From: Candidatus Nanohaloarchaea archaeon
GTDB taxonomy: Archaea > Nanohalarchaeota > Nanosalinia > Nanosalinales > Nanosalinaceae
DNA: 64,000 nucleotides
Reading direction: 5' to 3'
Assembly: GCA_013343275.1 (NCBI GenBank)
Contig: CP046106.1
Span: forward strand, 352,001 to 416,000
Each line of letters starts with the position of its first letter. Positions within the stretch are counted from its first letter, which is position 1. The notes beneath the pieces were generated by a model. The model searched no databases. It was not told the origin of the DNA and was given only the letters and a program-made list of their open reading frames with translations. Positions 1 through 64,000 of the stretch are shown here, piece by piece. Both the position numbers and the translations under genes were made by a program.

Positions 1-65
1 TCCTGATCTTCGTCGCCAGTAAATACTTGGCCACAGTAAGGACATTCAACTTCTTCGTTAGTCAT
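1..65 (-). CDS. 5' part of a small CPxCG zinc-finger protein (runs off the window)
   Basis: ATG at 65 reads MTNEEVECPYCGQVFTGDEDQ; TATA-like TTTAA about 25 nt upstream; too short for the ORF track. Confidence 0.6.
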   Translation of the reverse strand, partial: MTNEEVECPYCGQVFTGDEDQ

Positions 66-178
66 GTTATCACGTATCTGTTACAAGTGTTAAATGGTTT
101 TCGGTAGTTGGCCTATATGCAAATGAGAATATAGACAGCAATAAAGGAAAGCGCCACTTAACTTTATAAACATTTTGA

Positions 179-2920
179 CTATTCATCAAGGATATCTGTC
201 ACAGGCATTACCTCTATACTCCGGACCTTGTCCTCCGATACACAGTAAATATAGGCCTCAACCGGTTTTTCCCTTGCATCCTCTATAGCTGATGCGTACA
301 GACTGAGCTGCTTCTGGTATTTCTCGGGTTCTTTATCGCCGATCTTGAAGTCGTAGATGCGGATAACCTCTTCCTTTTCGAGAAGCAGATCTATTCTACC
401 CTTGATAACTCCTCCATCTGCTGGCAGCCTTATATCTACTTCACACTGTTTTCTACCATCCAGGCCTTCTATAAACTGTTCTATATTTTCTTCGTAGTCT
501 GTGCTGCTACTTGCATCTCCTTGTATCTTTTCTTCGGCGAACTCGTGTAGATCACGGCCTTTCTCTCGGCCATCTCCTTCTTCCAGATCCAGTAGACTGG
601 TGACAGCAGTAGCTTCGCTGCCTTCATACTCTGGCAGCTCTGGGTCGAAGAAGCTGATATCGGAGGTATTTTCCTCCTGTTCTATAGGCTTCTCGCTGTA
701 ATACTCTTCCTCAAGAGGCATTTTTTCGAAGAAAGTTGATTTGCGGCCTTCTTCAGCGGTTATATAGAGCTCTTCTTCGGCTCTGGTGATTCCTACGTAC
801 ATGAGCCTTCTTTCCTCGTCGTAGCCTTTGGAAAGCGTCTGGAAAAGTATTTCAGATCTCCAGTTATCGAAGGAGAATCCTTTTTCCTCATTGTATTTTT
901 TACGAGTTCTCAGGCCGATAACGTCTCTGTATTCGATCGGTATGTAGTTTCCGTTGGTTGATGGGAAGCGGCTCTGGTTGACATCAGATATAAAGACGAC
1001 AGGGTATTCCAGGCCTTTAGCGGCGTGTATTGTCTGTATCTTTACCACATTTTCCTGCATCGAGTTATCGATCTCATAGATTTCTCCGTCCTCGATGTTA
1101 TCCTCTACAAACTGGATTAACTGGCCTAGGTTCATGTAGGAGCTCTCGAAGGTATCAGTCAGGACCTCTACAATTCGTTCTGTAAACCCGTTGCTGACTT
1201 CGTATCTCGTGAATACTTTTTCAGCAAACTGACCTATGTCGGAAGTGGTATCCAACTCCTCCCGGAACTCCTCCATATCCTTCGGATAATTTTCGTTATC
1301 AAGTATCTCTTTAGCCTCATCTAACGTGTATCCTGCGTTTTCCAGCACCACGGCCCATCCTCTATCCGAGTTAGAGTTGGAGATCCTCATCCACGCAAGC
1401 AGCATAACTGCAGGGTTCGTTTTGAAGAGTTCTACTCCTCCCTCATAAGCTACAGGCACTCCTCTGTTCTGTGCTTCTTTCTGAAGTTCCAGTCCGAAGT
1501 TACGGGTGCGTGTAAGTACCGCTATATCCCCGTACTCTCTTCCTCCCTCCTGAACTCTTCCCTGTATCTTAGCGAGGACATTTTCAGCCTCTTTCTCTGT
1601 CAGAAGCTTCTCTATACGGCCTTCTTCATCTTTCTGTGACTCCAGTGACGTGATCTTGGACCTTATTTCTTCCTGCGGAAGGTTCTCATAACCGGTTGCG
1701 GGGAGTGTAAGGGCCTCCTCTGATAGGTCAAGTATTTCCTGCGTCGACCTGTAGTTCTTCTTCAGCCTTATTTCCTCGACGTTTTCAATCCTGAAATCTA
1801 CTCTCCGCTGGCCTTCGTTCAGTTCTTCACGGTACTTCTCGAGTCTTCTCTGGAATCTTTGAATGTTCTCAACGTTTGCGTACTGAAAGCTGTAGATACT
1901 CTGTTTCCAGTCCCCTACAGCACAGATGTTTGGTTCATCAGCGAGAAGCAGCGTGAGCTTGAACTGTATCTCATTGGTATCCTGGAACTCATCTATCATC
2001 AGGTATTTGAATGACAGCTTGTCTCTCAAAGCCTTTTTCTCTGTCAGGAGCACGTAGGAGAACGCCAGGAGGAAGTTAAAGTTGAGGTAGTTCTTTCTGA
2101 GACAATACTGCAGGTAAGAGAAGTAGATATTATGTACAAACTCTTTAAGCTTCTCTCTGCCCTCATTAAAGGCCTTCTCCCCAAAGTCTCTTCTGACTTG
2201 CTTTGTGCCGTACCCTCCTCTGACCTCTTCTTCGCTGGGAGCATCTTCATCGAAATCCTTGTACTTCATGCTGTAAAGCCTGCTTCTGAGCTCCGACTGT
2301 TTCTTCCCGTTACCACTATTTCTTGGTTTGTTAACTTCCTTGAATATTTTCTTGAACTCCTGGAAGTCGCCATCAATGTATTTCTCCGAGTTGCCGAACC
2401 ATCCCTCTTTCTCTGGCACAATTCCTTTTGCGGCCAGGTTTTTCAACAGGCTCAGAATCTGTGAGTAGTCATCAATTATCTGGTAGAACTCGTGGTACTG
2501 TGAATTCTCATCTATAAACAGGTTCATGAAGCTGTCGAACTCCTGTTTCTCTCGAACCTCGCTCTCCATAAGATTCAGGCTCTGAGTTATGTCCTCCTCT
2601 AGGCCCAGTATTCGTGGAGTGTCGAATCCATGGTTTCGAAGTATCTTCTTTGCGAAGCTGTGGAAAGTTGAAATCGGTGCATCGTAGATCTTGGAGGCCT
2701 TGACATCTGTCCTCTCAATTATTCTTTCCTTCATCTGGTCTGCAGCGTTGTTGGTGAATGTAGCCAGCAGTATATCGCCAGGTTCTACGCCGTCATCCAG
2801 TATCTCTGCGTACCGCCTGGTTATAGTGAATGTCTTCCCTGTACCCGCCCCTGCGTCAACCAGGTAGATTCCATCCGTGTTGTCTATCAGTTTCTGCTGT
2901 TGTTTATTCGGGTCAGTCAT
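179..2920 (-). CDS. AddA/UvrD-like SF1A helicase with C-terminal PD-(D/E)XK nuclease
   Basis: Walker A AGAGTGKT, TFTNNAA, DEFQD, VGDWKQSIYSF, NYRS, TIHAAKGLE, EERRLMYVGITRA; C-terminal GRIDL...YDFK...QLSLYA nuclease motifs. Confidence 0.92.
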   Translation of the reverse strand: MTDPNKQQQKLIDNTDGIYLVDAGAGTGKTFTITRRYAEILDDGVEPGDILLATFTNNAADQMKERIIERTDVKASKIYDAPISTFHSFAKKILRNHGFDTPRILGLEEDITQSLNLMESEVREKQEFDSFMNLFIDENSQYHEFYQIIDDYSQILSLLKNLAAKGIVPEKEGWFGNSEKYIDGDFQEFKKIFKEVNKPRNSGNGKKQSELRSRLYSMKYKDFDEDAPSEEEVRGGYGTKQVRRDFGEKAFNEGREKLKEFVHNIYFSYLQYCLRKNYLNFNFLLAFSYVLLTEKKALRDKLSFKYLMIDEFQDTNEIQFKLTLLLADEPNICAVGDWKQSIYSFQYANVENIQRFQRRLEKYREELNEGQRRVDFRIENVEEIRLKKNYRSTQEILDLSEEALTLPATGYENLPQEEIRSKITSLESQKDEEGRIEKLLTEKEAENVLAKIQGRVQEGGREYGDIAVLTRTRNFGLELQKEAQNRGVPVAYEGGVELFKTNPAVMLLAWMRISNSNSDRGWAVVLENAGYTLDEAKEILDNENYPKDMEEFREELDTTSDIGQFAEKVFTRYEVSNGFTERIVEVLTDTFESSYMNLGQLIQFVEDNIEDGEIYEIDNSMQENVVKIQTIHAAKGLEYPVVFISDVNQSRFPSTNGNYIPIEYRDVIGLRTRKKYNEEKGFSFDNWRSEILFQTLSKGYDEERRLMYVGITRAEEELYITAEEGRKSTFFEKMPLEEEYYSEKPIEQEENTSDISFFDPELPEYEGSEATAVTSLLDLEEGDGREKGRDLHEFAEEKIQGDASSSTDYEENIEQFIEGLDGRKQCEVDIRLPADGGVIKGRIDLLLEKEEVIRIYDFKIGDKEPEKYQKQLSLYASAIEDAREKPVEAYIYCVSEDKVRSIEVMPVTDILDE

Positions 2921-2927
2921 GCTTGTC

Positions 2928-5489
2928 TCACTCCACTATCATGTCTCGGTAAGGGTTTCTGTCGATATCGTTGTCGCCGACAGGGAACCGTGAACCTTTG
3001 TACTCATTCAGTTCGTCAACTTTCTCCTCAAGGAATTCCTCAAACCTGTCAAGGTCCTCCTTGAAGAAGTTGGTTTTTCTGAACTCTAAAAGCTTTCTCA
3101 AAGCCTTATCTGCTCCTTTCTCCACGTATTTGTAATCTCCGACGTGTTTTTTTGCGTACTTGACGAACTCTCTACCGAATTCGGACTGAACCAGCTTGTC
3201 CTTGTCGTATGGGTAGGGAATCTTGTTATCCTCAAAGAATTTCTGGAAGTTAGGATGGCCCAGCTTTTCGAGGGTTTTCCTCCTGTCGTTTGACTTTGCT
3301 ACTCCTTTGATAAGTTTCTCAAAAACCTCCAGATCCAGTATCTTGTCGTTGAAATCCTTTGGATAGTAAGTTATGGAAACTGTTTTTTCATCCATATCTG
3401 ATTCGGAGTTTATATCCGAGGCCATGTCGCTGAGGAAGTAGAAGTAGGTGAACTTCAGTTTCTGATCCGGCATCTTGTCTCTGAGCTCGCTCAGGTACAT
3501 TATAGGCTGGAAGTCTGGTTTTTCATCGAAAAGTTCGACGTTGGAATCTCTAATTATCTTTTTCCTGCTTCGGCTCCGTGAACTGCTCTTGTAGTCCACC
3601 AGCTCATTTCCGAGGACGAGATCTATCTTTCCTTTTGCACAGATATCTTTATTCTGGAAGGTTAGTTCTGCGAAGTGCTTCTCGACATCCCTGTCAAAGT
3701 ACTCGGCGAAAATATTCTTGCCTGGACCTTCCTCTGGCTCAAGCTCCACGGCCTCAGGGCTATCTCTTGAGTCGATAAAGCTCTCAATATTTCGGATTCC
3801 GATCCTGAACTCTGTTTCAAGCGTCTCCAGCTCGATGTCATCTACGTAAGGCCTTATCTCTTTCTTCATTATCTCCACGAATTCTTCTCTGCCTTTTTCC
3901 TCTACGAATTCAGGAAAGTTTGCGTAGAACTCTGCGAACTCATGGAAAAGATTCCCTTTAACCATGATATCTTTCTCGGTGTCGGCAACAAGTCTTGAGA
4001 AATAGTAGGCTCTCGGGGACTGTACAAACCTGTTCAGAGAGGACTGGCTGAGCAGCTCTACTGTTTCCGGCTCTTCCAGAGAGTCTTCTTTACTGAAGCC
4101 TGATAGCTTGGATTTCTGCGGGAGAGAAAATCTCTCCGTCCTGTGATCTGAAAAACTTTCGAGGCCGCAGAGCTCTGTGAAGTAGAAGCAGGGAGAGATT
4201 TCTTCGTTCATTTCTTTATCCTGGACGAGGTAGTGTTTCTGTTCTCCATTCTGTATCAGGGCCTCGAAGTTCTGTAGGTTCCTTTTTTCTACTTCCTCTC
4301 TGTCGATCCACGATCTCTGATCTACTTCCTGTGTCCATTCCGAGGACATACCTATGTAGAAGACTACAGGACGGTCTATGTATACCGTTGATTTAGGTGA
4401 AGCGAGTAACACGCCGCTGTCTTCCGAGTTCTGTGTAGGATCAAAGGAATCTAGATAGTATTCAAGCCTGGATATACTACCTTCGGTTATACTTTCCTCT
4501 TTTAGGCCTAGGTCTTCCAGCACCTCTTCTATATGGTTCTGCTCGTATCCAAGTAGATCCTGGAATCCTTCGAGAAAGTCCTGGAAATCCATGAAGGAGG
4601 CCACGTTCAGGAAGTCTGTGAACTCGCTTAGCCTGTCGTCCTCCAGTTCTGATACCTTGACCTGGCTTTTGCTGTCGGAGGAATCAATTCCCAGGTGCTG
4701 TACTACCGGCTCCACATCTCGAAGCCTTATCCTGTCTTTTGCCAGCGCTAGCCTTGCCAGTGATATGAAGGTTCTCAGATCTTCCTTTTCGGAGAGTTTC
4801 TCTGTCGAGTTATAGGGTATTTCCTCGGATTTGAACGCAGACTCTATCAGCGACTGGTATCTTGTATCTGAATCCACAACAAGAGCAACGTTTTCCGCAT
4901 TTTCCTTGGATATATTCCTCTTCAAGGCCTCTACTATCTCGCTTGCGGATGAGAAGATATTGAATTTCGGTAGTTCAAACTCTCTGTTCTCAAATATTTC
5001 AACTGTATCGTAATCATCAGGCAGTACTTTCCTGTCGAGCTCGTTGAACTGGTATGGCGCTATCACAGCTACATCTTTATCTTCATCTATATTGGTGCTC
5101 TCTAGCGCTCTGAAGGGGTTGTTTATCTCCTCCAGTATCTTTATTATCTCTTCGGCAGCGTTTCCGGAGAACTGTTCTTCCTCCAGTATGCTGTAAAGGT
5201 TTCCTGTGTTTTTCCAGGATTCAAGTACTGTTTCCAGCATGTATGATGCCTGTTTCCAGGTAAGATCTGTTCTCTCTACTATTTCAAGAAATATCTCTCT
5301 TTTGAAATCCAGGTCGTCCAGTTCTTCATCGAATGCATATCTGCGTGGTGTTTCCGCAAACTCCCCCACTACTGCTTTATCTATCCGTTTGTTCAGGCCT
5401 TCTGCCAGAGGAGCATCAACTGTAAGCACCAGATCGTAGTTTTTGACCTCTTTATACAGTTTTTCAAGGTTTTTCCTATTCCTTATCAT
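2928..5489 (-). CDS. AddB-like protein: inactive helicase-like N-terminus plus PD-(D/E)XK nuclease
   Basis: SQSSLNRFVQSP, GNLFHEFAE, GKIDL, VDYKS, QPIMY; no Walker A; ends 7 nt upstream of the helicase gene, same strand. Confidence 0.85.
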   Translation of the reverse strand: MIRNRKNLEKLYKEVKNYDLVLTVDAPLAEGLNKRIDKAVVGEFAETPRRYAFDEELDDLDFKREIFLEIVERTDLTWKQASYMLETVLESWKNTGNLYSILEEEQFSGNAAEEIIKILEEINNPFRALESTNIDEDKDVAVIAPYQFNELDRKVLPDDYDTVEIFENREFELPKFNIFSSASEIVEALKRNISKENAENVALVVDSDTRYQSLIESAFKSEEIPYNSTEKLSEKEDLRTFISLARLALAKDRIRLRDVEPVVQHLGIDSSDSKSQVKVSELEDDRLSEFTDFLNVASFMDFQDFLEGFQDLLGYEQNHIEEVLEDLGLKEESITEGSISRLEYYLDSFDPTQNSEDSGVLLASPKSTVYIDRPVVFYIGMSSEWTQEVDQRSWIDREEVEKRNLQNFEALIQNGEQKHYLVQDKEMNEEISPCFYFTELCGLESFSDHRTERFSLPQKSKLSGFSKEDSLEEPETVELLSQSSLNRFVQSPRAYYFSRLVADTEKDIMVKGNLFHEFAEFYANFPEFVEEKGREEFVEIMKKEIRPYVDDIELETLETEFRIGIRNIESFIDSRDSPEAVELEPEEGPGKNIFAEYFDRDVEKHFAELTFQNKDICAKGKIDLVLGNELVDYKSSSRSRSRKKIIRDSNVELFDEKPDFQPIMYLSELRDKMPDQKLKFTYFYFLSDMASDINSESDMDEKTVSITYYPKDFNDKILDLEVFEKLIKGVAKSNDRRKTLEKLGHPNFQKFFEDNKIPYPYDKDKLVQSEFGREFVKYAKKHVGDYKYVEKGADKALRKLLEFRKTNFFKEDLDRFEEFLEEKVDELNEYKGSRFPVGDNDIDRNPYRDMIVE

Positions 5490-6598
5490 CCAATTACTTC
5501 CCCTACTGTGTCATCTATGATATTATTACTGGAATCGTTCTGAGGATCTTTGTTACTGTCTAAGCTGTTGTTTGTGCTGGATGATGAACCTATGTTGCAT
5601 CCGTTGAATGAGGAGCTCGAGTTCTGATCTTCCAGTATTGCTGTTCTGAAGCTGAAGTTACACCTAATTCCTTCTCCCGGCGGGAGCGTGATCTGCTGTT
5701 CTTGTATCTCGAAGGCCAGTTTGAGATTAAGCGTTCCCTCCGTTCTCTCGCCTCTCCTGATATGTGATGCAAGCCAGTCATCTATCTTGCTGTTGTCCAT
5801 CTTGACTCGGAATGTTAGTTCCTCGGTTTCTCCAGGAGCTATAACGTTGTCTTCGGGAGAGGAGATTAGTTTGGCCTGGCTGGTGCTCCACTCTACTAGA
5901 GCGATCTGGTTCATTTCTATCTTGCCAGAGAGGCCAGGAACAGGAAGAGGGTAGCTGTTGGGGTTACGTATTCTGAGATCAATAAGTATATTTGTGCTTT
6001 TTGAGGTTACTTGCCCCCATTCAGCGGAGCCGCCTACAACCTCTATTACCGGGCCTGTACTGTATCCTGCTATCTCTGTACCGTAGTTATACTCTCCTCT
6101 GACCTGTTTCAACGTGCTGTCAAACATTCCTATAATATCGGTATCTATCCTGTCACGGTATGCTACAGTATGGAAAGGTACTGTTACCGGGCCTATGCCT
6201 GCTTTCACGCTGAGAGGTATTCTGAGCTTCGATACTTCGCTGTTTCTTACGTGAGTGGCCCACCAATCAGGTATTTTGTCGTACAGAAGTGTCGAGTTAA
6301 TGGTTTTTGTCTGGTTTCCTTGATCTATCTTTACTCCTTCTCTTGTCCCTTTCACGAGCACTATTTCATTCATCAGTACTCTGTACTGGAGCTTTACGTC
6401 GGAGTAGTTGAATTTTATCTTGCTCGGGTTGTTTATCCAGATAGTGCTTGTAACTGAGATATTTTCCTGGCCTACGCTATTCCAGTCTCCTCTGTCTTGT
6501 ACTCCAAAACTTGGTTTCTGGGTCAGACCTAGGAATGCTGCCGATCCTGCCAGTATAACGGCGGTTGTAAAAAGGATTTTTGTTTTGGACAGAGACAT
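5486..6598 (-). CDS. Membrane-anchored LEA type 2 / WHy-domain protein (two domains)
   Basis: N-terminal hydrophobic anchor; two repeats with NPS/NPN...MN.I.L and WWATH/WLASH..GE motifs; start taken at MSLSK. Confidence 0.75.
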   Translation of the reverse strand: MSLSKTKILFTTAVILAGSAAFLGLTQKPSFGVQDRGDWNSVGQENISVTSTIWINNPSKIKFNYSDVKLQYRVLMNEIVLVKGTREGVKIDQGNQTKTINSTLLYDKIPDWWATHVRNSEVSKLRIPLSVKAGIGPVTVPFHTVAYRDRIDTDIIGMFDSTLKQVRGEYNYGTEIAGYSTGPVIEVVGGSAEWGQVTSKSTNILIDLRIRNPNSYPLPVPGLSGKIEMNQIALVEWSTSQAKLISSPEDNVIAPGETEELTFRVKMDNSKIDDWLASHIRRGERTEGTLNLKLAFEIQEQQITLPPGEGIRCNFSFRTAILEDQNSSSSFNGCNIGSSSSTNNSLDSNKDPQNDSSNNIIDDTVGEVIG

Positions 6599-6731
6599 TT
6601 CAAGAAACAAGTTATCTTCAATTTTTAAGACTCTACTTATTCTGGAAAAGGCAATCTAATTAACTGCCTGATAATAGCAACGCCTTGAAAGGTTCGAATA
6701 GATTAAATAATATTCGCTGTATTCTTTTACA

Positions 6732-6824
6732 GTGTTTAGTGAATGCTGTGCAGATGGATGCAGTAGAAAAACTATGTTAGGCCTCTGCAATAAATGTGCA
6801 AAGCAGAGAGTTATAGAGGGTTAA
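6732..6824 (+). CDS. Putative 30-aa Cys-rich microprotein
   Basis: GTG start, MFSECCADGCSRKTMLGLCNKCAKQRVIEG; TTAAATA about 25 nt upstream. Confidence 0.45.
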   Translation: MFSECCADGCSRKTMLGLCNKCAKQRVIEG

Positions 6825-6843
6825 TTAAACATCTATAAAGAGT

Positions 6844-6951
6844 TCAGGGATCGCTACAGTCACGTATCATGCCGCAGTTCGGGCATTTAAGCTCGCAGGC
6901 CACATATTTGAACATTTCTGTGCCGCAGTTCCAGCAAGTTTTATCTACCAT
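6844..6951 (-). CDS. 35-aa CPxCG-type zinc-finger microprotein
   Basis: MVDKTCWNCGTEMFKYVACELKCPNCGMIRDCSDP; starts 11 nt after the uppS stop on the same strand. Confidence 0.75.
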   Translation of the reverse strand: MVDKTCWNCGTEMFKYVACELKCPNCGMIRDCSDP

Positions 6952-6962
6952 CTACCTTGTTT

Positions 6963-7628
6963 TTACCTTCCCTTCTTTCTTCTAAGTTTCTGGTAGTGCT
7001 CCAATGCCTCTTTTACATCCTCCAGCTCTACAGCAGGGAAGTTCTTCTTGATGTGGTAGAACTCGGAGTAGCTTGCGTTCCATATCGGAAAGCCTGATAG
7101 ACACTCACGCTCTGGATTGTCTCCTGTACGGATAACGAAGTCTATAGACGAATCAAGTTCAAGCGATGAAGCCATGTTTTCCTCGGTAAAGCCGTCTTCT
7201 TCCTCAGCTATACTTTCTGAGGCCTGTAGAATATCGGATTTGCCATCGTAGGAGATCAGTGCGTTGATCTGTTTCTTCCCCTCGCTGAACTGTTCCTCGA
7301 GGTCTGACAGCTTCTGCTGCAGATGATCCGGTAAGGCATCTGGCATGGTTGTAGCCCAGTTAAATCGGAAGCCTCTGTCCCCAAACTCTTCAGCTACCTC
7401 CGATATTGTGGATTCAAGTAGCTTGAATAGGTCTTCGAGTTCTTCATCGTCTCTTTTCAGGTTCTCCTCGGAGAGAAGGTAGAAGCTTACTTCTTCGACA
7501 TCTTCATCTTTCAGGTTGCGGCCTATCTGCTTAATTACATTTTTAGCTTCTCTGTAGGCCTCGGCGTTTTCAATGCCTTCGTTGTCTGCGTATCTGCGGT
7601 TTCCGTCAGGTATTACTCCCAGATGCAT
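6963..7628 (-). CDS. uppS: cis-prenyltransferase (undecaprenyl/polyprenyl diphosphate synthase)
   Basis: HLGVIPDGNRRYA, SEENLKR, DFVIRTG, LSGFPIWNASYSE. Confidence 0.9.
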   Translation of the reverse strand: MHLGVIPDGNRRYADNEGIENAEAYREAKNVIKQIGRNLKDEDVEEVSFYLLSEENLKRDDEELEDLFKLLESTISEVAEEFGDRGFRFNWATTMPDALPDHLQQKLSDLEEQFSEGKKQINALISYDGKSDILQASESIAEEEDGFTEENMASSLELDSSIDFVIRTGDNPERECLSGFPIWNASYSEFYHIKKNFPAVELEDVKEALEHYQKLRRKKGR

Positions 7629-7689
7629 TATATCTTCTACCTATCTGAAATCAGATTATTAGACTTTTAAATTAAGTCAATCCTCTCCA

Positions 7690-10097: not shown

Positions 10098-10104
10098 AGA
10101 TCAG

Positions 10105-54640: not shown

Positions 54641-54732
54641 CATATCCACTTCTCAATTTTTTCTATCAGAACCATCACTCCAGCACCTTCCTATCGTTGC
54701 TTTTTTACGTGGCCTCTGTAAAGGATGTGCGT

Positions 54733-54825
54733 ATGGTGGATGACGAAGACCTCTTCTCCGCCGACGAGGACAGTGAAGACTCTGACTTTGATTTCGATTC
54801 AGACTTCGGCGAAGAAGAGGAGTAG
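54733..54825 (+). CDS. Putative 30-aa hyperacidic micropeptide
   Basis: MVDDEDLFSADEDSEDSDFDFDSDFGEEEE; GAC/GAA-rich codons typical of this genome. Confidence 0.55.
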   Translation: MVDDEDLFSADEDSEDSDFDFDSDFGEEEE

Positions 54826-54992
54826 AGGCCTTTAGTAGAGGTTTCCGGTGTGCACCATGTTCCGAGCGGCTTCCGACCTTGAGTTCCACATATCCGCTTT
54901 CTTCTTAATCAAGAAGTTTTGTAGGGAAAAAGAGGGCAGCACCTCTAATACGGCAGCAACTTTTTTAAATCTAGCTTGCAAACGTTAGGGTT

Positions 54993-55814: not shown

Positions 55815-55840
55815 ATTCTTTCTTCCCAATTTCTCTTTTT

Positions 55841-56170
55841 ATGGAAGAGCTAATCCAGGATCTCAGAAAGATAGAAGGAGTAAAGGCCGTAAGGAAACAG
55901 TCCGGGCCTGTACTGAAGATAGAATTATTTCACCGTGAGATCCCTGCCAGCGAGGCCGTCGATATACTTGGTGATCTCAGAAGCATTTCTCAGAGTATCG
56001 TCAGTATTCTCGATGAGGCCCGCAGTGACGGAGAGTTCGAATCCTGGGAATGGATTCAGAAACCGGAGAAAAAGTATCAGGAGACTTCTCTGGGCCGAAA
56101 CAGCAGTGTATCCGACAGAAAGGATAAAGGTCACAGGCCGGGATATTACCGCGTCTCAATCATTGAATGA
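55841..56170 (+). CDS. Hypothetical protein
   Basis: ORF track; WEWIQKPEKKY. Confidence 0.7.
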   Translation: MEELIQDLRKIEGVKAVRKQSGPVLKIELFHREIPASEAVDILGDLRSISQSIVSILDEARSDGEFESWEWIQKPEKKYQETSLGRNSSVSDRKDKGHRPGYYRVSIIE

Positions 56171-56173
56171 GAG

Positions 56174-57133
56174 CTAGGGATACCAGTTGACTTTCTTGAG
56201 CTGGCTTGAATGCTTGTAGCTGGGGTCTGAGTCGTATTCGATCACGTATCTGACGGTGAGGTTTTGTTTTTCTGCTTCGTAAGGTATTGAGAACATTAGG
56301 TCGGTTGTTATGGATTCTCCTGGTTTCAGTGTGGCGGCATAGTTTTCTTTGTAGTTGATGGCGCCTGAGGCCGTGTAGGTCTCGTAGCGGGTGCCGTTGT
56401 ACACTACGTAGAATTCGTCGCTTCTGACAGTCTCGATTTTGCTGTTGCCTACGTTTTTGAATTTGACTGTGGCGACTGCGTACTGGTTGTTGATTCTGTA
56501 AGGTGTTTTCTTGTGGACTTCGCCATCGGATCTGTACTTGTAGTAATAGATCAATTCAAGATTCTTGACGGTGTATGACACGTTCCACTGGGTCACATAG
56601 CTTTCGCCCATCGAAAGGTCTGGAACTGTCACATTGAGTCTCTGTTCTGCGATTGGCTCGGAGTCAACCCAGCCGCGGGATGGATCCTCGGTCGGCGCAA
56701 TCTTGGTCCTCCAGTCAAAGAAAGATACACCGGTTTCGACTCCCTGTCTCATGAAAGTAAACTTTTTTGTCTCTCCAGGCCCTAACGTAACGTTAAACTG
56801 CAGATCCTGCAACCTGGTAGTAAAATCATCAGGATGCCTCTTCAGCAAGCGGAAACGCTCAGAACCTTTTTTCCCTCCGATATTCTTCAAAGTCAAGTTA
56901 ATACTGTATTTCTCACTCAGCGAGACTTTGTCCGGCATCGAAAAGCTCACGACATTTATCTGGGTCTCGTCGGCCATGTCAGGGCTCCGAGAGGACTCCT
57001 CAGGCTGTGAAGCTGTCTGGTCCGAAGTATTGTTTCCGGTTTTCGGCGGTGTAGAGCTATCTGTACATCCTGATACGGCCACTACAGTTGAAAGTAAAAG
57101 AATTATTGCGAGCTTCTGGAATCCGGATTCCAT
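56174..57133 (-). CDS. Lipoprotein with DUF4352-like Ig domains
   Basis: Lipobox VAVSGC; VKFKNVG...LKPGES...FSIP. Confidence 0.75.
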   Translation of the reverse strand: MESGFQKLAIILLLSTVVAVSGCTDSSTPPKTGNNTSDQTASQPEESSRSPDMADETQINVVSFSMPDKVSLSEKYSINLTLKNIGGKKGSERFRLLKRHPDDFTTRLQDLQFNVTLGPGETKKFTFMRQGVETGVSFFDWRTKIAPTEDPSRGWVDSEPIAEQRLNVTVPDLSMGESYVTQWNVSYTVKNLELIYYYKYRSDGEVHKKTPYRINNQYAVATVKFKNVGNSKIETVRSDEFYVVYNGTRYETYTASGAINYKENYAATLKPGESITTDLMFSIPYEAEKQNLTVRYVIEYDSDPSYKHSSQLKKVNWYP

Positions 57134-57192
57134 GTGAAAGATTTCACAGGCCTTTCTTTAAGAAACAGCAGGCTGACAGCCAAGGCCTCTAC

Positions 57193-59568
57193 CTATACTG
57201 CCTGGACCGTGCTTCCCTCTTTATCTTTCTGGACTTGGATGATGTTGTCAGCTTTTTCCCGGCCTATTCCGTGGTGTGTTATCAGCAGGATCTGGTTGAA
57301 CTGTTTGACTGCGTTCTGTATTTTTTCCAGCAAGTTTTCCCGGTTATCAGAGTCTGTTGCGTCAGTTGGTTCGTCGATCATGAGGAAGTCGGTGCCTGTC
57401 ATTTCTGCGAGCGCTAGCTGGTATGCGAGTGCTGTCAGTGTTCTCTGGCCTCCTCCCTGGTAGTCGCTGATAGAGTACTCGCGGTCCGCATTCTGTGGGA
57501 CTCCTTTCAGCCTGTAATCGTCTCTGTCGATAGCAAGATGACTGAACTCAGGTTCTACGGCCAGTTCCTGATACCATCTATAGACCTTTCTCTCCAGCTT
57601 ACGGATATTCTCCTCGCGCATTTTTGACTCGGCCAACGAGTACTTCTCAGAGGCCTCCTTCACCTCTTCAACTCTTTCCTGTAGTTGCTCCAGTCTCTCT
57701 ACTTCCTCCCGAACCTCTTCTACACGTTCCTTTATTTCTTCCAGTCTTTCCTGCTCCTCTTCTACAGCCCGAGCCTTCTCTCCCCGCCTTTTCTCCATCT
57801 CCTCGACCTTCGATTTTAGAGAGTTATACCTAGAGAGGGCCTTGTCCTTGGTTTCCTCCACATCTTCCAGCCTAACATCGATCTCGTCATACTCTATTTC
57901 CAAGCCTTCAATCCTCGACTCCAGTTCATCCAGTTTTTCTCTGCGGCCCTCCAGTTTCTGGTTCTTTTTCTCCAGTTCTTCTCTGTCGGACTCTACACCA
58001 GAGATCTCTTTCTCAAGGCTATTCCTACGTTCACGGAGCTCCTCTATTTTCTCCTCAATAGATTCAGCATCTCGTTTCTCGAGGCCTTCCTCAAGAAGCT
58101 GTTTGTCCTCTTCAAGGTCCTCCAGATTCTCTTCGAGTTCTTCGATCGTGTCAGAGAGTTCTTCCTTCTCATCTTCGGCCTCTTCAATCTGCTCCTCTAC
58201 TTCCTCAAGATCTTCTTTTTTGCTGGAAAGTTCCCCAAGTTTCTCTTCCTGATCCTCTTTCTTATCGATTTTTTCCTCGATCGCGGACAGCTCTTCTCTG
58301 ACGTCGTCAATCCGCTGATGGTATTGGTCCAGGTTTTCCACTTCTCGGCCGCAGACCTCGCATTCTCCCTTGTCATGTGTTTTCTCAAGGTCATCCAGTC
58401 GGGCCTTTTTCTCGCTCCGTTTCTCACGCAGCTCCTTCAGCTCCTCTTCAACTTCTTCCAGCGATTTATCAGTATCGTATTCATCTATCTCAGTCTGTAA
58501 CTCCTCTTTCTCATCTTCAAGATCTTCAATACGGGCCTCTACATCCTTCAGGCCCTCCGATTTCTCATCTATTTTCTCCTGCAGATTCTCTATCTTCAGT
58601 TCCTTTCTATCCAGTCTTTTGCGGACCTCCTCTATTTTCTCGGCCTCTTCCTCCACTGACTCGAATTTTTCATCTACCTGCTCCAGTTCCTCCTCGAGCT
58701 CGGCCTCCCTATCACCGATTTCGGCGTCATACTCTCGTCTGATCTCCTCTATATCTTCTTCCAGTGATTCTATGAACTCCTGCTGTTTCTCTATCTCGCG
58801 CTCTATCTTGGAGGCCTTTCTCAACTTCCTGTATTGTTCCTGTAGCTCATCTTTCTTCTCTACGGCCTCTTCAAGCTCCTCTCTTCTCTCTTCGAGTTCT
58901 TCTTCGAGTTCCTCCAGCGAGCCCTGTTTTTCTTCAAGCTCTTCCTCTGTATCTTCCTTCTGTTCTTCCAGTTCTTGTTCCCTCTCTTTTTTCTCTTCCA
59001 GGCCCTGGATCTCCTGTTCTTTACGGGATATGACTTCTGAGAGCGCATCTGACAGTATGTCGACTGTTTTGATGTCGAAGATGTAGTCCATGGCCTCCTG
59101 CTGTCTTCTTCCGCCCTCTACTTTCTCCACGAACTTCTGCTGGGCTGCGTAGTTGACGTGTTCTATCTTCTTTGAATCGAGGCCTGTGATCTGGAACACC
59201 TGTTTCCTGACGTCGTTGACTTTTGCACCACCGTCTTTCGATTCGAGAGTCTGTTCCTCGCCGTTACTTAGTAATCCTACCTCGTAATTCCCCCTACCGT
59301 TCTCTGAGTACTCCGAGACAACATAGTAGCTATCACCGCTAACAGAGAACTCAAGCCGGGCCTTCATACCAGTTTCAGAAAAATTAATGTATTCTTTCGG
59401 GCTTCGAAAGTTGAAGGCCTCTCCTGTCAATGCAAAGTATATTGCATAAAGGATTGAGGATTTTCCTGCATTGTTCGGGCCTTCTATCAGGTTCAGGCCT
59501 CCCGTAAAGTTTATCTCGGCGTCCTTCAGTTTTCTGAAGTTTTCGAGTTCCAGTTTCTCCAGTTTCAC
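57193..59568 (-). CDS. rad50: Rad50/SbcC ATPase
   Basis: LENFRK, GPNNAGKS, coiled coil with CEVC zinc hook, atypical signature YQGGGQ, IDEPT, ITHH. Confidence 0.9.
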   Translation of the reverse strand: MKLEKLELENFRKLKDAEINFTGGLNLIEGPNNAGKSSILYAIYFALTGEAFNFRSPKEYINFSETGMKARLEFSVSGDSYYVVSEYSENGRGNYEVGLLSNGEEQTLESKDGGAKVNDVRKQVFQITGLDSKKIEHVNYAAQQKFVEKVEGGRRQQEAMDYIFDIKTVDILSDALSEVISRKEQEIQGLEEKKEREQELEEQKEDTEEELEEKQGSLEELEEELEERREELEEAVEKKDELQEQYRKLRKASKIEREIEKQQEFIESLEEDIEEIRREYDAEIGDREAELEEELEQVDEKFESVEEEAEKIEEVRKRLDRKELKIENLQEKIDEKSEGLKDVEARIEDLEDEKEELQTEIDEYDTDKSLEEVEEELKELREKRSEKKARLDDLEKTHDKGECEVCGREVENLDQYHQRIDDVREELSAIEEKIDKKEDQEEKLGELSSKKEDLEEVEEQIEEAEDEKEELSDTIEELEENLEDLEEDKQLLEEGLEKRDAESIEEKIEELRERRNSLEKEISGVESDREELEKKNQKLEGRREKLDELESRIEGLEIEYDEIDVRLEDVEETKDKALSRYNSLKSKVEEMEKRRGEKARAVEEEQERLEEIKERVEEVREEVERLEQLQERVEEVKEASEKYSLAESKMREENIRKLERKVYRWYQELAVEPEFSHLAIDRDDYRLKGVPQNADREYSISDYQGGGQRTLTALAYQLALAEMTGTDFLMIDEPTDATDSDNRENLLEKIQNAVKQFNQILLITHHGIGREKADNIIQVQKDKEGSTVQAV

Positions 59569-60746
59569 TGCTCTTCACCGAATATTTTCCTGTCGACTTC
59601 TTTCCTAAGTTTCTGTCGGGCCTCTTTCTTCAGGTTGATTCCTGATGAAGTAAGGTTCTCGTCGTCGGCCAGCATCGACGATGCTTTCTCATGCAGCTCC
59701 CTGAACTCCTCACTGCTGCCATCCAGTTCTTTTTCCAGAAATTCTTCTACACTGAAGGCCTCTCCATCAACTGTATCTGCATATCCCTTCACTCTGAGAT
59801 CAAGCACTACTTCGGCCATCTCCACGTTTTCCAGTTCCGGAAGTCGGGCCTCGATTTCCTGCACCGGTATCTCTCCGGGCTCTTTCTCCGTCTCGCCTTT
59901 TACCATGACCTTGACGGCTATCCTGTTCCCTTCCAGCTGCTGGACTCTGCCAACCGTTGGTTCGACACGAGCCTCGTCTACAGGCACTCGAATCTTTTTC
60001 AGCTCCAGATTCTGCGGTATAGCACCAGTCTCTAGATGTTTTACTCCTTCAAACCCTGCCTCGATTATGTTGTAGTGGTTTCCGAACTCCGTGGAATTGA
60101 AGTCGTAATCTACTGTGCCTCCTGTGGCCGAGAATACTGTATTATTGATTTCTTTCCAAGTGTTGGGCTGGTGGTCATGGCCTATCGCCAAGTAGTCCAG
60201 ATTTTTAGATGCTATTTCATCTGCCTTGACGCAGTCATCGGAGTAAGTCCTTGTAACTCCTTCGACAAAGTCGTGCATCATCAGGATATTGGTGCCATCG
60301 TTCGGTGAGAATTCATCCAGTATTTCACGCGTCTTGCTGGAGTGGTATCCGAGGCCGTAGATATTGAGGCCTTCAAGCTGTACTGCTGGTTCTCCAAACT
60401 CTTCCGGAGAAGGATCGATAAGGTGTACGTATTCGCCTGTGAGGTGTTCTATTGCGAGGCCTTTGAGTTTTCTTCCGTGGCCGTAGCTGCGATCGTGGTT
60501 ACCCCGGATCATGTACATCGGGATTTCGGCGTCTTCCAGTTTCTCCAGTATTTCACGAGCCTGTTCAATTACCGTGTGCCACGGGTATACTGTGTCGAAC
60601 ACGTCTCCTGCGTGTATTATCAGATCTACATCTTTTTCGACTGCTTTTTCGATCAGGAAGTTGAAGGCCTGGAGGGTTGATTCTACGCGTTGTTCTGCGA
60701 TCTGGCCGGGCTGTTTTCGACCTAGATGTGTGTCGCCGAAATGCAT
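59565..60746 (-). CDS. mre11: Mre11/SbcD nuclease
   Basis: DTHLG, AGDVFD, GNHD, MHD, GHDH; overlaps rad50; true start may be upstream. Confidence 0.9.
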   Translation of the reverse strand: MHFGDTHLGRKQPGQIAEQRVESTLQAFNFLIEKAVEKDVDLIIHAGDVFDTVYPWHTVIEQAREILEKLEDAEIPMYMIRGNHDRSYGHGRKLKGLAIEHLTGEYVHLIDPSPEEFGEPAVQLEGLNIYGLGYHSSKTREILDEFSPNDGTNILMMHDFVEGVTRTYSDDCVKADEIASKNLDYLAIGHDHQPNTWKEINNTVFSATGGTVDYDFNSTEFGNHYNIIEAGFEGVKHLETGAIPQNLELKKIRVPVDEARVEPTVGRVQQLEGNRIAVKVMVKGETEKEPGEIPVQEIEARLPELENVEMAEVVLDLRVKGYADTVDGEAFSVEEFLEKELDGSSEEFRELHEKASSMLADDENLTSSGINLKKEARQKLRKEVDRKIFGEEQ

Positions 60747-60857
60747 TATACGGTAGTTTTCAGAAATCTCTTGCTCCCCTCCAACAAGTTAAGCGGGAGA
60801 AATATTTATCGGCCTTACCCCGGTCTTTTCAGTTTCGAGAAACAAATCTTTCAGTGT

Positions 60858-61394
60858 ATGGCGCTGGAGATAGACTGCGAAAGTATAGATGATATGATCA
60901 GTATCGAGCTGATAACAGGCCTGAACGCACTGGTTACGCAGAGTCCAGAGATTGAGGAAGAGGCCGAACTGGAGCATGTAAACGGTGTGCCTGTCGGCGA
61001 CATGGAAGCTTTCGAGGTCGCCCGTGATGAGGATTATCACCAGTTAAGGCCTTCGGGAGAAGGCTTTATCGAGAATATAATTGAGTTTACACTGCCGCAC
61101 AGCTGCTCGGAGAACAACGATGCAGTATATCTTTCCGCAGTTCTGATGAAGGAACTGGCTGAATCACAGGCTTTCGGAGAAGGAAATAAGAGAACAGCGT
61201 ATCTTTCCGGAGTCATGTTTCTTATCAAGGCACAGGCCCAGCAGGGTTTTTCAAAGGCTGTCTACCCCGATCTTACGAGAGATTTCCAGGAAATCCTTCA
61301 GGAAGTAGCTGTAAGAGAGAAAGACGAGGAAGACCTCTACAGGTATATTACGTCTCTTATTCATGATCCTATGGAGAATGTTAGAGCTCGATAG
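60858..61394 (+). CDS. Fic/Doc-family protein with His-to-Gln motif
   Basis: QAFGEGNKRTA; ATG 60858 preferred. Confidence 0.8.
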   Translation: MALEIDCESIDDMISIELITGLNALVTQSPEIEEEAELEHVNGVPVGDMEAFEVARDEDYHQLRPSGEGFIENIIEFTLPHSCSENNDAVYLSAVLMKELAESQAFGEGNKRTAYLSGVMFLIKAQAQQGFSKAVYPDLTRDFQEILQEVAVREKDEEDLYRYITSLIHDPMENVRAR

Positions 61395-61575
61395 TTGATA
61401 CGTTGTCTTCTTCACTAGAGGTAAATTTCCGGTAGGCCTTACGTAGCTTCCGGTAGAATAGCGACTCACGCATTCTCTGTGCTGGCTTCTCCTCCGCCAG
61501 TTCTCTAAGGCCTTCTCGGTTGCTGGATATTACTTTCTCGGCCCATTCTGTTTCTTTCTTTTTTTCGTCGCTCAT
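61381..61575 (-). CDS. Small protein, possible Doc antitoxin
   Basis: AEKVISSNREGLRELAE; TTTAAA about 25 nt upstream; convergent overlap with the Fic gene. Confidence 0.6.
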   Translation of the reverse strand: MSDEKKKETEWAEKVISSNREGLRELAEEKPAQRMRESLFYRKLRKAYRKFTSSEEDNVSTIEL

Positions 61576-61697
61576 ACATGTTAGAACCGGGTTTGAGATT
61601 TAAAATGTGCGTGGGTTGGTAAAGTAAAATGAAATATAGAATGTAAGAAAAAACTTGTTTATGGCGTTGTACGCGTCGAAGAAATCCTTAACAGGAT

Positions 61698-61892
61698 TTA
61701 AGCTTCTACTACGTTTGTTGCCTTTGGACCTCTGTCGCCTTCTTCCTGATCGAATTCGACTTCTACGTCTTCTTCGATAGAATCGCCTTCTTCAAGATCG
61801 CTGACGTGGAAGAAAAGATCGTCGTCCATGTCTTCTGTCTCGATGAATCCGTACTTCTTCTGATCGTGGAAGAACTTAACTGTACCTTTCAT
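61698..61892 (-). CDS. cspA: Cold-shock protein
   Basis: MKGTVKFF...KYGFI...LFFHVS...GPKATNV; GGAGGTG SD upstream. Confidence 0.93.
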   Translation of the reverse strand: MKGTVKFFHDQKKYGFIETEDMDDDLFFHVSDLEEGDSIEEDVEVEFDQEEGDRGPKATNVVEA

Positions 61893-62054
61893 ACTACAAA
61901 ACACCTCCTTATAACAGAACATTTGAGGGCAACCTTTATACAAGGAAGTGAAATTTCGGAGGCCTCAAAACTGCTTCAAGGAGCAGAATCCTCTACAGAT
62001 GCTGCAAGCCGATAAAAAACCGGATTCTATCAGTCCCTCATCTTGGGAGCGAAC

Positions 62055-62064
62055 TTTTATAAAA
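62055..62064. promoter_or_regulatory. Palindromic TATA element, possibly bidirectional
   Basis: TTTTATAAAA between two structured non-coding segments. Confidence 0.5.
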
Positions 62065-62084
62065 CCCAGATCACAAATAAGAGA

Positions 62085-62478
62085 TATGACTCACGGAGCC
62101 CATCACCAGGTTTCCAGTATTGCGACCTCTACTAGGGGCAATGTGAGCTTCTTTAATAAGTATATCTCCAAGCTGAATATCCTGTATTTTTGATACAGGA
62201 TTAGTAGGTTGGGAAATCCTGGCCTGGCTCACAACTCAGTGGGCCTCGGGCAAAAGGACTCAACCGAAACCATTAGGTCTCATCCCTTACAAGGAAAAAC
62301 TGCCTACAATACAATTACAAAAATACACAAAGACGCTTAGACGTTACGCTGCCATGAAGACAAGGCCTTAAAAGGCTTGGAGAAAATCAAAACCCGCACA
62401 GAATCTTGAAAAAGGTGATAACCTAGAACACTACGACTCCGACCACGTATAATCCTCTTGTCTTTTCTCTTTTTCTTC
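62085..62478 (+). ncRNA. Candidate structured ncRNA of unknown family (strand inferred)
   Basis: TATA upstream; nested stems GAGCC/GGCTC, CCAGG-TTTCC/GGAAA-CCTGG, ATTGC/GCAAT, AGCTT/AAGCT, ATCCTGTAT/ATACAGGAT; pyrimidine-rich end; no convincing ORF. Confidence 0.45.
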
Positions 62479-62521
62479 CGACCTTACCGTATAAAATTGG
62501 CCAGTCTTACAAACTACTTGT

Positions 62522-63529
62522 ATGGCAGGTCCTCTGTACTATCTTGCGCTCGCTACGGTTTCAACTGCAGTCATCTGGAAATCAAGCAATCTTCTGGAGG
62601 AAACCAGCGAAAAACTTGCAGCATACTACGGCCTTCCTGCAATAGTTCAGGGAGCTGTTATCGCAGCAGTAGGATCAAGCTTTCCAGAGCTCTCATCAAC
62701 AGTTATCTCGGTGCTTGTCCATGGAAACTTCGAACTGGGAGTAGGTGCGATAGTTGGCTCTGCTATATTCAACATACTGCTGATTCCAGCAATATCGGTG
62801 CTCGGCGATGGGAAAGTTCTGGACGCTAACAGAGATATAGTATACAAAGAGGCCCAGTTCTACATGCTCTCCATAGCTGTACTGTTACTGACATTCTCAA
62901 TGGCCGTCATCTACAACCCCCTACCGGGAGCACTGAAAGGAGAGGTTACCCGCTGGCTTGCAGTAATACCCGTACTGGTCTATGGCCTCTACATATTCAT
63001 ACAGTACGAAGACACGAAAGACGGAAGCATGGAGAGAGTTGAGAACATCTCCGAGATGAAACAGTGGGCCTTACTAGCTTTAAGCCTCGTATTTATTGTT
63101 GCAGGAGTGGAAGGGCTTGTTCGCAGCGCAGTAGAGTTCGGCAACATCTTCAACACTCCTTCATTCCTCTGGGGACTTACAATCGTTGCTGCAGGAACAA
63201 GCCTTCCAGACACTCTGGTAAGCTACAGAGCAGCGAAGAAAGACGAAGGTGTCACCAGTATGGCGAACGTACTCGGAAGTAACGTATTCGACCTGCTGAT
63301 CGCCATCCCAGCCGGTGTACTGCTTGCAGGCGCAACACCTATCAACTACGCAGTTGCAGTTCCAATGTTTGGATTCCTCACCTTCGCCACAATCGCATTA
63401 TTCACCACCCTAAGAACAGATCTAGAGCTTTATCGAAGAGAGGCCTACTTCCTGATACTGGTGTACGCGGTATTTATTGCCTGGATGATAGCCGAAACCT
63501 TCGGATACACCAACTTCATCCCTGTATAG
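62522..63529 (+). CDS. Na+/Ca2+ antiporter (CaCA/YrbG family)
   Basis: GSSFPE...GAIVGSAIFN and GTSLPD...NVLGSNVFD alpha repeats. Confidence 0.92.
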   Translation: MAGPLYYLALATVSTAVIWKSSNLLEETSEKLAAYYGLPAIVQGAVIAAVGSSFPELSSTVISVLVHGNFELGVGAIVGSAIFNILLIPAISVLGDGKVLDANRDIVYKEAQFYMLSIAVLLLTFSMAVIYNPLPGALKGEVTRWLAVIPVLVYGLYIFIQYEDTKDGSMERVENISEMKQWALLALSLVFIVAGVEGLVRSAVEFGNIFNTPSFLWGLTIVAAGTSLPDTLVSYRAAKKDEGVTSMANVLGSNVFDLLIAIPAGVLLAGATPINYAVAVPMFGFLTFATIALFTTLRTDLELYRREAYFLILVYAVFIAWMIAETFGYTNFIPV

Positions 63530-63576
63530 GCTGAAGTGCCAGCGATTTGTTAAAAATCGATGACTAACTAAGGAGT

Positions 63577-63948
63577 ATGTCTGATGTAAGTTTCAGTACA
63601 GCGCTTACCACCGAGCTGAGAACAAGACTGGACGGAAACTTCGAGGTTATACCCGAGTACGAATCAGCTTCCAGCAGTCTGGACAGGGTTCACGACCTGG
63701 TGATTCTGGAGGAAGGCCAGATAAGGTTGATCTTCGAACTCGAGGGCGGAACAGACGGATTTGAGGATGCAAAGCAGGAGTTAAGAAAATTCTACGAGAA
63801 AGAGTCTGGTGACGAAGTGTTTTTACTTGCGGTGTGCAGTAAAGAGGAACTACTGGTGTTCGATGCCGAAAACGAGATCTATTCACAGCAGTATACTGAT
63901 GACCCAGTGGAGAAGATAGCTGAGGATGTAGTCGATCTGCTTGAATAG
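63577..63948 (+). CDS. Hypothetical protein, possibly a degenerate restriction-endonuclease fold
   Basis: PEY...HDLVI...IFELE...AKQEL; AGGAG SD. Confidence 0.55.
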   Translation: MSDVSFSTALTTELRTRLDGNFEVIPEYESASSSLDRVHDLVILEEGQIRLIFELEGGTDGFEDAKQELRKFYEKESGDEVFLLAVCSKEELLVFDAENEIYSQQYTDDPVEKIAEDVVDLLE

Positions 63949-64000
63949 AGAACAGTTCGAAAAACCTTTTTCCAATCCCGACAACAAACATACAATATGA

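Follow-up and report, generated by a model that had tools for sequence, protein, structure and literature searches.

Highly iterated palindromes (HIPs), known from cyanobacteria, have gone unexplained for three decades. We describe here a word of similar habits, the hexamer AGGCCT, in a genome assigned to Candidatus Nanohaloarchaea archaeon, starting from a stretch of 64,000 nucleotides (assembly GCA_013343275.1, contig CP046106.1; 'the window' below means this whole stretch). On balance we lean towards the view that AGGCCT is an archaeal HIP, whose fixation over its one-letter variants is favoured by a weak, genome-wide force that acts on DNA site by site.

Short, abundant words have been described in several other settings. 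The uptake signal sequences (USS) and DNA uptake sequences (DUS) of Pasteurellaceae and Neisseriaceae are thought to spread by molecular drive and depend on competence machinery; known uptake sequences are asymmetric words of 9-12 letters, and the features described for them include a dense distribution over all reading frames, shifted peptide composition, avoidance of close neighbours, scarcity in islands and restriction to particular clades. We know of no sequence-specific uptake in archaea. In Escherichia coli the abundance of CCWGG is shaped by Dcm/Vsr very-short-patch repair, so that the target word of a methylase is over-represented through biased repair. Chi sites are the short words of RecBCD and AddAB enzymes; the Chi sequence of Bacillus subtilis has 5 letters. 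Archaea usually rely on Mre11-Rad50/HerA-NurA.

With regard to the palindromes themselves, the over-representation of HIP1 (GCGATCGC) is stated as 15- to 300-fold in the accessible part of one account (PMC5861425). In our literature search we came upon no account of AGGCCT being enriched in archaea, nor of any HIP there. An earlier note on the window, made from its letters alone, had suggested an undescribed HIP-like signature, and this is supported: AGGCCT is a palindrome that tops all hexamers, occurs in every frame and in spacers beyond what codon or dipeptide usage provides, is confined to certain clades, and is missing from foreign-looking islands.

Results

Abundance and sequence context

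The window occupies positions 352001-416000 of a single 915,886-bp contig (46.9% G+C), and the small genome and acidic proteome (D+E 18.0%, K+R 10.5%) fit the nanohaloarchaeal label. The earlier note had listed 18 copies of AGGCCT in the first 10 kb where about 2 were expected; all 18 coordinates are exact matches, and the base composition of that stretch predicts 2.0. Over the 64 kb there are 103 copies, against 18.5 +/- 4.6 in 100 dinucleotide-preserving shuffles, none of which reached 103 (the highest count was 34). The assertion that sites stay frequent in most of the window is borne out with a single exception at 36179-48623, to which we return below; the backbone on its two sides (1..36178, with 65 copies including the 18 just mentioned, and 48624..64000, with 37) together holds 102 copies in 51.6 kb, an observed-to-expected ratio (O/E) of 9.4.

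Across the whole genome, hereafter G000, the 1803 copies amount to one per 508 bp (about 2 per kb) and to 9.2 times the base-composition expectation, the highest ratio among all 4096 hexamers; the runner-up palindrome, CTGCAG, reaches an O/E of 2.76. Enrichment of other GGCC-containing hexamers to the same degree would have spoken against a motif-specific signal, and none comes close: the remaining NGGCCN words reach at most 3.1 against 9.2, the next-best lying at 2.4-3.1 and GGGCCC at 0.32. Counts per 5-kb bin are near Poisson (standard deviation 3.6 against 3.1), save for a few empty bins. A longer repeat or mobile element as the source of the word was rejected on the evidence of the bases flanking it, which carry at most 0.08 bit each. 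Public sequencing reads were also consulted: one run contained 0.11 of the sampled words and three runs assembled to short, low-depth contigs, and among the differences listed (40 of 234) one falls inside an AGGCCT site (position 257), which is too little for statistics of gain and loss.

Since the word might be a side effect of codon, dipeptide or oligonucleotide composition, with no force specific to the motif, we compared its frequency with what the encoded proteins allow. Open reading frames (ORFs) were called by a crude longest-ORF rule (at least 80 aa), which gave 986 ORFs covering 89.7% of the genome, and codons were permuted synonymously within each gene, keeping every protein and the codon usage of each gene (30 shuffles). 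Coding DNA contains 1602 copies of AGGCCT where these shuffles give 357 +/- 15 (O/E 4.5, z 85), so that the excess persists under the codon-shuffled null; shuffling codon order yields 242. All three codon phases show an excess of about 4.5-fold, with 252, 522 and 828 copies observed in phases 0, 1 and 2 against 56, 116 and 186 expected, and, with 203 more outside called ORFs in the genome-wide tally, the earlier statement that sites fall in several reading frames holds true. The 94 kb of DNA outside ORFs (42% G+C) contain 191 copies, an O/E of 12.4.

Codon choice depends on whether the word can be formed. The share of GGC among glycine codons rises from 31% overall to 74% in the context A-GGN-CT, that of GCC among alanine codons from 27% to 85% in AG-GCN-T, and arginine-proline pairs are written AGG-CCT in 252 of 502 cases against 46 expected. 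Taking all places where the protein sequence permits AGGCCT ('possible' sites), 1592 of 3208 are occupied in G000, in almost equal proportion in the three phases (251/500, 513/1072 and 828/1636, or 0.50, 0.48 and 0.51), while occupancy in a non-enriched relative, G012, is 0.08. The proteins themselves are affected: in G012, G000 and the more strongly enriched relative G008, in that order, the O/E of the peptide RP is 0.83, 1.11 and 1.48, that of GL is 1.01, 1.21 and 1.44, and that of [KEQ]A[FLSYCW] is 0.94, 1.20 and 1.79, while their reversed counterparts stay flat. Peptides that can host AGGCCT are thus over-used in step with the strength of enrichment, and the force reaches proteins. It is independent of reading frame and coding status, overrides synonymous codon choice and shifts dipeptide use.

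The one result that a purely compositional account can claim is that an order-4 Markov model, built on 5-mers, predicts the hexamer exactly (3611 against 3606, O/E 1.00). This fit arises because the pentamer AGGCC already holds the signal and is not evidence that a signal is absent; under maximal-order Markov models GGCC is itself the top 4-mer (z 52) and AGGCC the top 5-mer (z 20). Given the synonymous shuffle, the context-dependent choice of codons, the non-coding excess, and the lack of enrichment in close relatives with similar proteomes, the codon or dipeptide artefact is rejected, and we regard a compositional origin as already refuted, its remaining probability being negligible.

The shape of the signal is informative about the kind of force involved. 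Among the 6000 GGCC sites of G000, 1220 have neither of the proper flanks (5' A, 3' T), 2977 have one and 1803 have both, which corresponds to 0.81, 2.75 and 9.2 times expectation. Relative to the G012 baseline AGGCCT stands at x6.3, its three outer-position variants at x2.8-4.0, and all six inner-position variants at x0.74-1.24; the products that deamination (C to T) would leave lie close to baseline (AGGTCT x1.11, AGGCTT x0.99). Where the choice is synonymous, all three alternative bases are cut roughly in proportion, with T the least reduced. An intact GGCC core is required, and the outer A and T are graded additions to it. Since no neighbouring word is drained, the pattern is that of a reversible fixation bias, selection-like or conversion-like, with an odds shift of about 6-14-fold, and not that of a one-way mutational conversion.

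Whether the two flanks act together bears on how the word is read. The odds ratio between them is 0.92 in G000 coding DNA, 2.2 in G000 non-coding DNA, 4.3 in G008 coding DNA and 8.4 in G008 non-coding DNA, with 1.3-1.5 in the G012 baseline. The synergy in non-coding G000 and throughout G008 suggests that a reader which recognises both strands symmetrically fits better than one which reads a pentamer on each strand separately.

Comparison with related genomes

The word was counted in 31 genomes of the same order, including G000, with the reversed word as control. It is enriched in five: G000 (1803 copies against 419 of the control), G001 and G002 of the same genus (2478 against 304 and 1554 against 246), G003 (4131 against 610) and G008 (4489 against 360). 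In the remaining 26 the ratio to the control is at most 1.6. In G008, analysed over its whole genome, the O/E is 19.3, 3845 of 5212 possible sites are filled (0.74), and the non-coding O/E is 30.6. No outlier word of 5-8 letters was found in non-enriched G012 (whole genome) or G016 (320 kb).

A tree of class-I LysRS from 26 genomes (G002 has no LysRS gene and so is not included) places G003 and G008 as sisters near the base of the family and nests G000 and G001 among 11 non-enriched genomes. On this tree the trait must have changed at least twice, a single change being compatible with 0% of 200 bootstrap trees; judged from this protein, the enriched genomes form two separate clades. Between the clades, G000 and G008 share 1070 possible sites in 552 orthologue pairs, and 516 of these are occupied in both genomes against 455 expected.

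Other palindromes are avoided in G016. The 320 kb of G016 contain no GGGCCC, no GTGCAC and 7 copies of GAGCTC, and this genome has C5 and N4/N6 methylase matches; a GDGCHC-type restriction-modification system would be expected to leave such a pattern of avoidance. A system of that type has been described for a nanohaloarchaeon (PMC11001535, accessible part). Avoidance in G000 is milder (GTGCAC 0.26, GGGCCC 0.32).

Position along the genome

Sites of AGGCCT are under-represented within about 30-50 bp of one another. Measured by nearest-neighbour distances, coding DNA of G000 has 28 occupied pairs less than 30 bp apart where random occupancy of possible sites predicts 64, and possible sites are filled at a rate of 0.14-0.36 if another site lies within 30 bp, compared with about 0.52 at greater distances. 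The effect in G008 extends over a gradient, occupancy rising from 0.35 at 6-10 bp through 0.52-0.60 at 10-30 bp and 0.73-0.75 at 50-100 bp to 0.81-0.84 at 100-300 bp. Rare exceptions to the avoidance of close pairs are found in one ORF of the window, where two pairs of sites are spaced by exactly 9 bases (34922-34942 and 35141-35161); each pair has the potential to fold into a 6-bp stem closed by a 9-nt loop.

With respect to genes, site density is flat in a metagene profile, except that it falls around start codons and peaks modestly within the 50 bp that follow stop codons. The orientation of pentamers with a single proper flank tracks the gene strand (1787 sense against 975 antisense), and no replication-linked orientation of these pentamers was seen in G000 beyond that skew.

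These distributions are relevant to an explanation by selection, which we consider unlikely in itself but nearly as likely as the repair bias preferred in the Discussion. It would hold that weak selection maintains a high and even density of binding sites for an abundant nucleoid or chromosome-maintenance protein, as was argued for HIP1 by Xu et al. 2018; selection on the distribution of HIP1 sites is argued in the accessible part of PMC5861425. Sites more evenly spaced than random occupancy predicts, a flat metagene profile and a symmetric motif are what such a process might leave, and the positions of sites in G000 and G008 are correlated (odds ratio 4.4). However, no candidate protein was found, and the uniform occupancy of the three phases (0.48-0.51) looks like a blind shift in the odds at each site. 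Moreover, 26 of the 31 relatives do without the word, which means that whatever function the sites may have is not essential.

AGGCCT is scarce in certain intervals. The exception in the window, 36179..48623, carries one copy (at 43340), far below the 24.6 predicted from the density of the backbone (Poisson P = 5e-10), and GGCC is also low (20 against 33 expected). Its genes (36321-48589) encode, by Pfam matches, DUF63, a thioredoxin/DsbA-cupredoxin fusion, DoxX, DUF411, a second thioredoxin/DsbA-like protein and a 671-aa P-type (E1-E2) ATPase, so that the interval looks like a metal or copper handling block, and it was probably acquired recently. Elsewhere on the contig (C1), the interval C1:132251-141556 encodes a divergent MCM helicase (768 aa), AbiTii and several unnamed ORFs, is free of AGGCCT over 5.7 kb (134.8-140.5 kb), and is a probable integrated element; a 233-aa Mrr_cat nuclease adjoins it and has no match in G008. 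The Mrr family cuts modified DNA. The genome's longest run without AGGCCT (9.8 kb) houses a block of surface-type proteins at C1:782094-790160 (781-791 kb), with ORFs of 701, 1093 and 857 aa that have weak carbohydrate-binding or Ig-like matches. Ribosomal RNA was rejected as a cause of site-free bins, there being no Rfam match in the three low bins, which correspond instead to foreign-looking gene blocks. The longest site-free stretches look, from their gene content, like DNA of foreign origin; the force has yet to act on these three islands, and the absence of AGGCCT from them implies that the word marks long-resident DNA.

Candidate genes

The earlier note had attributed the word, as one possibility, to GGCC methylation coupled with biased repair. 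More generally, a methyltransferase might mark GGCC or AGGCCT, and methyl-directed or very-short-patch repair might then turn near-sites into sites, the modification being perhaps cryptic or supplied by a host. Alternate cyanobacterial HIPs have been linked to matching methyltransferases (Elhai 2015, PMC4390886, accessible part), the combination of a strict GGCC core and graded outer positions resembles the specificity of restriction-modification enzymes, and a patchy distribution over two clades would suit a mobile gene of that type. In spite of these resemblances we found no gene that would support the proposal. Profile searches of G000 gave no match to PF00145 (C5), PF02086 (Dam-type) or PF03852 (Vsr), and the sole PF01555/PF02384 match is weak and corresponds to a THUMP+UPF0020 RNA methyltransferase, not to an N4/N6 DNA methylase. 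A motif-IV/PCQ-ENV scan of G000 returned only RNA or protein methylases and unrelated proteins; five ORFs carry the motif IV pattern [DNS]PP[YFWH], and, judged by eye, these comprise a HemK/Mtq2-like enzyme, a METTL5-like enzyme, a channel, a glycosyltransferase and a PEP-utilising enzyme, none with the look of a DNA methylase.

The relatives give the same impression. C5 methylases occur in none of the five enriched genomes and in 7 of the 26 others; PF01555 (N4/N6) exceeds its cut-off, among enriched genomes, in G001 only; PF02086 is absent from all 5 genomes searched for it, four of them enriched; and strong PF02384 (HsdM-type) matches are limited to G001 and G003. Among the Pfam families searched (four in G000 and two to four in relatives), no DNA methylase family is common to all five enriched genomes. 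With regard to repair, not one of the 31 genomes yielded MutS (domain V), and NucS/EndoMS occurs in 26 of 31 and so does not discriminate; mismatch handling in this order is presumably of the NucS type. The words that deamination would produce are not depleted either: the C-to-T variants, at x0.99-1.16 of baseline, are the least depleted alternatives at synonymous sites. The presence in G000 of the Mrr-type nuclease also tells against a modified word. GDGCHC is the only modified motif reported in the accessible part of a nanohaloarchaeal methylome study (PMC11001535). It does not look as if a canonical DNA methyltransferase plays a part in G000, and an origin linked to methylation appears to us rather improbable.

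At the start of the window lie two genes that suggest a different reading, an AddA-like helicase-nuclease (179..2920, - strand; UvrD helicase and PD-(D/E)XK in Pfam) and an AddB-like nuclease subunit (2928..5489, - strand; PDDEXK_1). If the pentamer AGGCC were read on single strands as a Chi-like signal that stops AddAB, the palindrome would simply be two overlapping pentamers; this would suit the occurrence of AddA/AddB-like genes in 5 of 5 enriched genomes and the independence of the flanks in G000 coding DNA, where N(AGGCCT) = N(AGGCC)^2/N(GGCC), and interference between neighbouring sites would follow from redundancy. However, strong AddA/AddB matches occur in 16 of the 31 genomes, the 5 enriched and 11 without the word, following the species tree, and G012 (whole) and G016 (320 kb) carry AddAB yet have no outlier word of 5-8 letters. 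In the AddB alignment no column separates the 5 enriched from 10 non-enriched genomes (there are 0 strict positions, and this grouping takes rank 38 of 66 control groupings), and the strong flank synergy in G008 (4.3-8.4) and in non-coding G000 (2.2), like the orientation of one-flank pentamers, which follows the gene strand with no replication-linked pattern, is contrary to expectation. As determinants of the trait, AddAB and Chi are unsupported by phyletic pattern, by the word spectra of G012 and G016 and by AddB positions, and we give this reading very little credence.

Nor does the word appear to be a tag for self-recognition in DNA exchange or uptake, spread among cells by biased uptake and recombination in the manner of USS and DUS, which we think scarcely probable. 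There is much in the distribution of AGGCCT to recall such tags: about two copies in every kb, spread over spacers as well as all frames, a shifted peptide composition, avoidance of close neighbours, absence from islands and confinement to clades. Against this, a six-letter palindrome discriminates little, and searches for ComEC (PF03772) and DprA (PF02481), in which control genomes matched, detected neither in any of the 31 genomes. Bacterial-type competence genes as the determinant are accordingly rejected.

We also searched for a reader by gene content. Seventy G000 proteins match G008 and not G012, and 27 more match G008 far better; 65 candidate genes were left after a partial filter against G016, in a screen that rests on one enriched genome (G008) and one and a third non-enriched genomes (G012 and the 320 kb of G016). 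Twenty-nine proteins, 25 of them from the 65 candidates, were scanned against Pfam, and 10 of the 29 also against NCBIfam. The relatives were searched for six candidates, namely a SAM methylase, an EEP nuclease, an Ogt/ATL-like protein, an HxlR regulator, a 116-aa acidic protein and AddB, none of which is confined to enriched genomes. The SAM methylase, a small class-I methyltransferase of the window (18857..19465, + strand; Methyltransf_25/11 in Pfam), was rejected as a phyletic candidate, having clear orthologues in non-enriched G018, G005, G007 and others. The 116-aa ORF (C1:526358-526708, - strand) is very acidic, belongs to no family and lies in a block of conserved synteny; it shares 73% identity with the counterpart in G008 and 53% with that of the same-genus G001, and was not found in G003, G005, G007, G012 or G018. 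Elsewhere in the window are a 791-aa SMC/Rad50-like ATPase (57193-59568, - strand; AAA_23, SMC_N) and a 222-aa ORF that weakly matches Fic/DOC (60726-61394, + strand).

Discussion

In proposing how AGGCCT came to fill these genomes, we need to account for a force that is blind to frame and coding, asks for an intact core, draws no neighbouring word down, and loses its grip where another site is close. A bias in recombinational repair, that is, a conversion drive, is to our mind the most likely action, although we would rate it at somewhat less than an even chance. The agent would be a protein that recognises GGCC in duplex DNA in a symmetric way, in the manner of a homodimer. We infer that an AGGCCT site bound by this protein would limit how far a broken end is resected; copies without AGGCCT might then be overwritten from a sister copy that carries the site. 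The outcome would be a self-propagating gene-conversion drive, which should saturate once a segment already holds a site. The alternative named in the earlier note, a binding site for a chromatin or repair protein, fits both the symmetric recognition and the short-range interference; a candidate protein was not identified.

A fuller version of the conversion drive may also be imagined, in which a dimeric, DNA-bound protein of archaea shields its own site from resection, independently of methylation, so that sites spread until each segment holds one, and in which the gene for that protein has moved between nanohaloarchaeal lineages or been lost from some of them. Such movement or loss would, if the drive is real, be the reason for two separate enriched clades. 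We offer this as a speculative proposal and, taken as a whole, think it unlikely.

Several considerations weigh against the view of AGGCCT as a HIP spread by a site-by-site force on DNA, and against the conversion drive in particular. No reader protein was found, and of the 65 screen candidates the 6 that were tested across relatives do not fit. The resection barrier is pure inference. The flanks are independent in G000 coding DNA (odds ratio 0.92), which suits a strand-wise pentamer reader better than a dimer. The co-occupancy of sites in G000 and G008 has an odds ratio of 4.4 against 1.6 in the G012 control, a comparison between distant lineages made without control palindromes, and the correlation could reflect old shared sites, differences in constraint from site to site, or position-specific selection, as opposed to a blind drive. 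Absence from Pfam searches leaves room for a modification enzyme of a new kind, or one supplied by a host cell, which would not be found in this way. Finally, the ORF calls are crude (longest ORFs of at least 80 aa) and the tree is derived from one protein.

If AGGCCT is indeed a HIP, it is a second and independent case, in another domain of life and in genomes of less than 1.2 Mb, and the existence of sister lineages with and without the word makes its cause findable by comparing gene content. Should the word persist in the absence of both a matching methyltransferase and MutS/MutL, methyl-directed repair would not serve as a general model of HIPs. The force is strong enough that protein sequences are biased by it. 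In these genomes the density of AGGCCT is a sharp marker that tells long-resident DNA from DNA of recent acquisition, and it singled out three poor stretches, namely the MCM mobile element, the copper/metal island and the surface-protein block.

Set beside the described systems, AGGCCT shares something with each. It resembles USS and DUS in its abundance (at least about 1 copy per kb), in occurring in either orientation and inside genes with effects on peptides, and in its rarity in foreign islands, but it is a palindrome where those are non-palindromic words of 9-12 letters, and ComEC and DprA are found in 0 of 31 genomes. Unlike the words shaped by Dcm/Vsr, it occurs in a genome with no C5 methylase or Vsr matches, its T-for-C variants are not depleted, and its enrichment is much stronger. 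As with the Chi sequences of RecBCD and AddAB, it is a short word found in excess, the window encodes an AddAB-type enzyme, and its behaviour in G000 coding DNA is additive and strand-wise; it differs from them in being palindromic, with flank synergy in G008, and in that neither AddAB presence nor AddB residues track the trait.

The nearest likeness is to HIP1 and the alternate cyanobacterial HIPs, as they are presented in the accessible parts of PMC4390886 and PMC5861425. AGGCCT has six letters where HIP1 has eight, and its host is an archaeon with a genome of less than 1 Mb; its enrichment, 9-fold in G000 and 19-fold in G008 against 15- to 300-fold, is at the low end of the HIP1 range. It also differs in that no matching DNA methyltransferase and no MutS were found, and in its clear short-range interference. 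In other respects the two correspond closely. Like HIP1, for which the cause is likewise unsolved, AGGCCT is specific to certain lineages with exceptions among their relatives and shows no placement at the level of promoters or genes; and both are short, G+C-rich palindromes, the top words of their length, that occupy all three reading frames and non-coding DNA alike and are not explained by codon preference.

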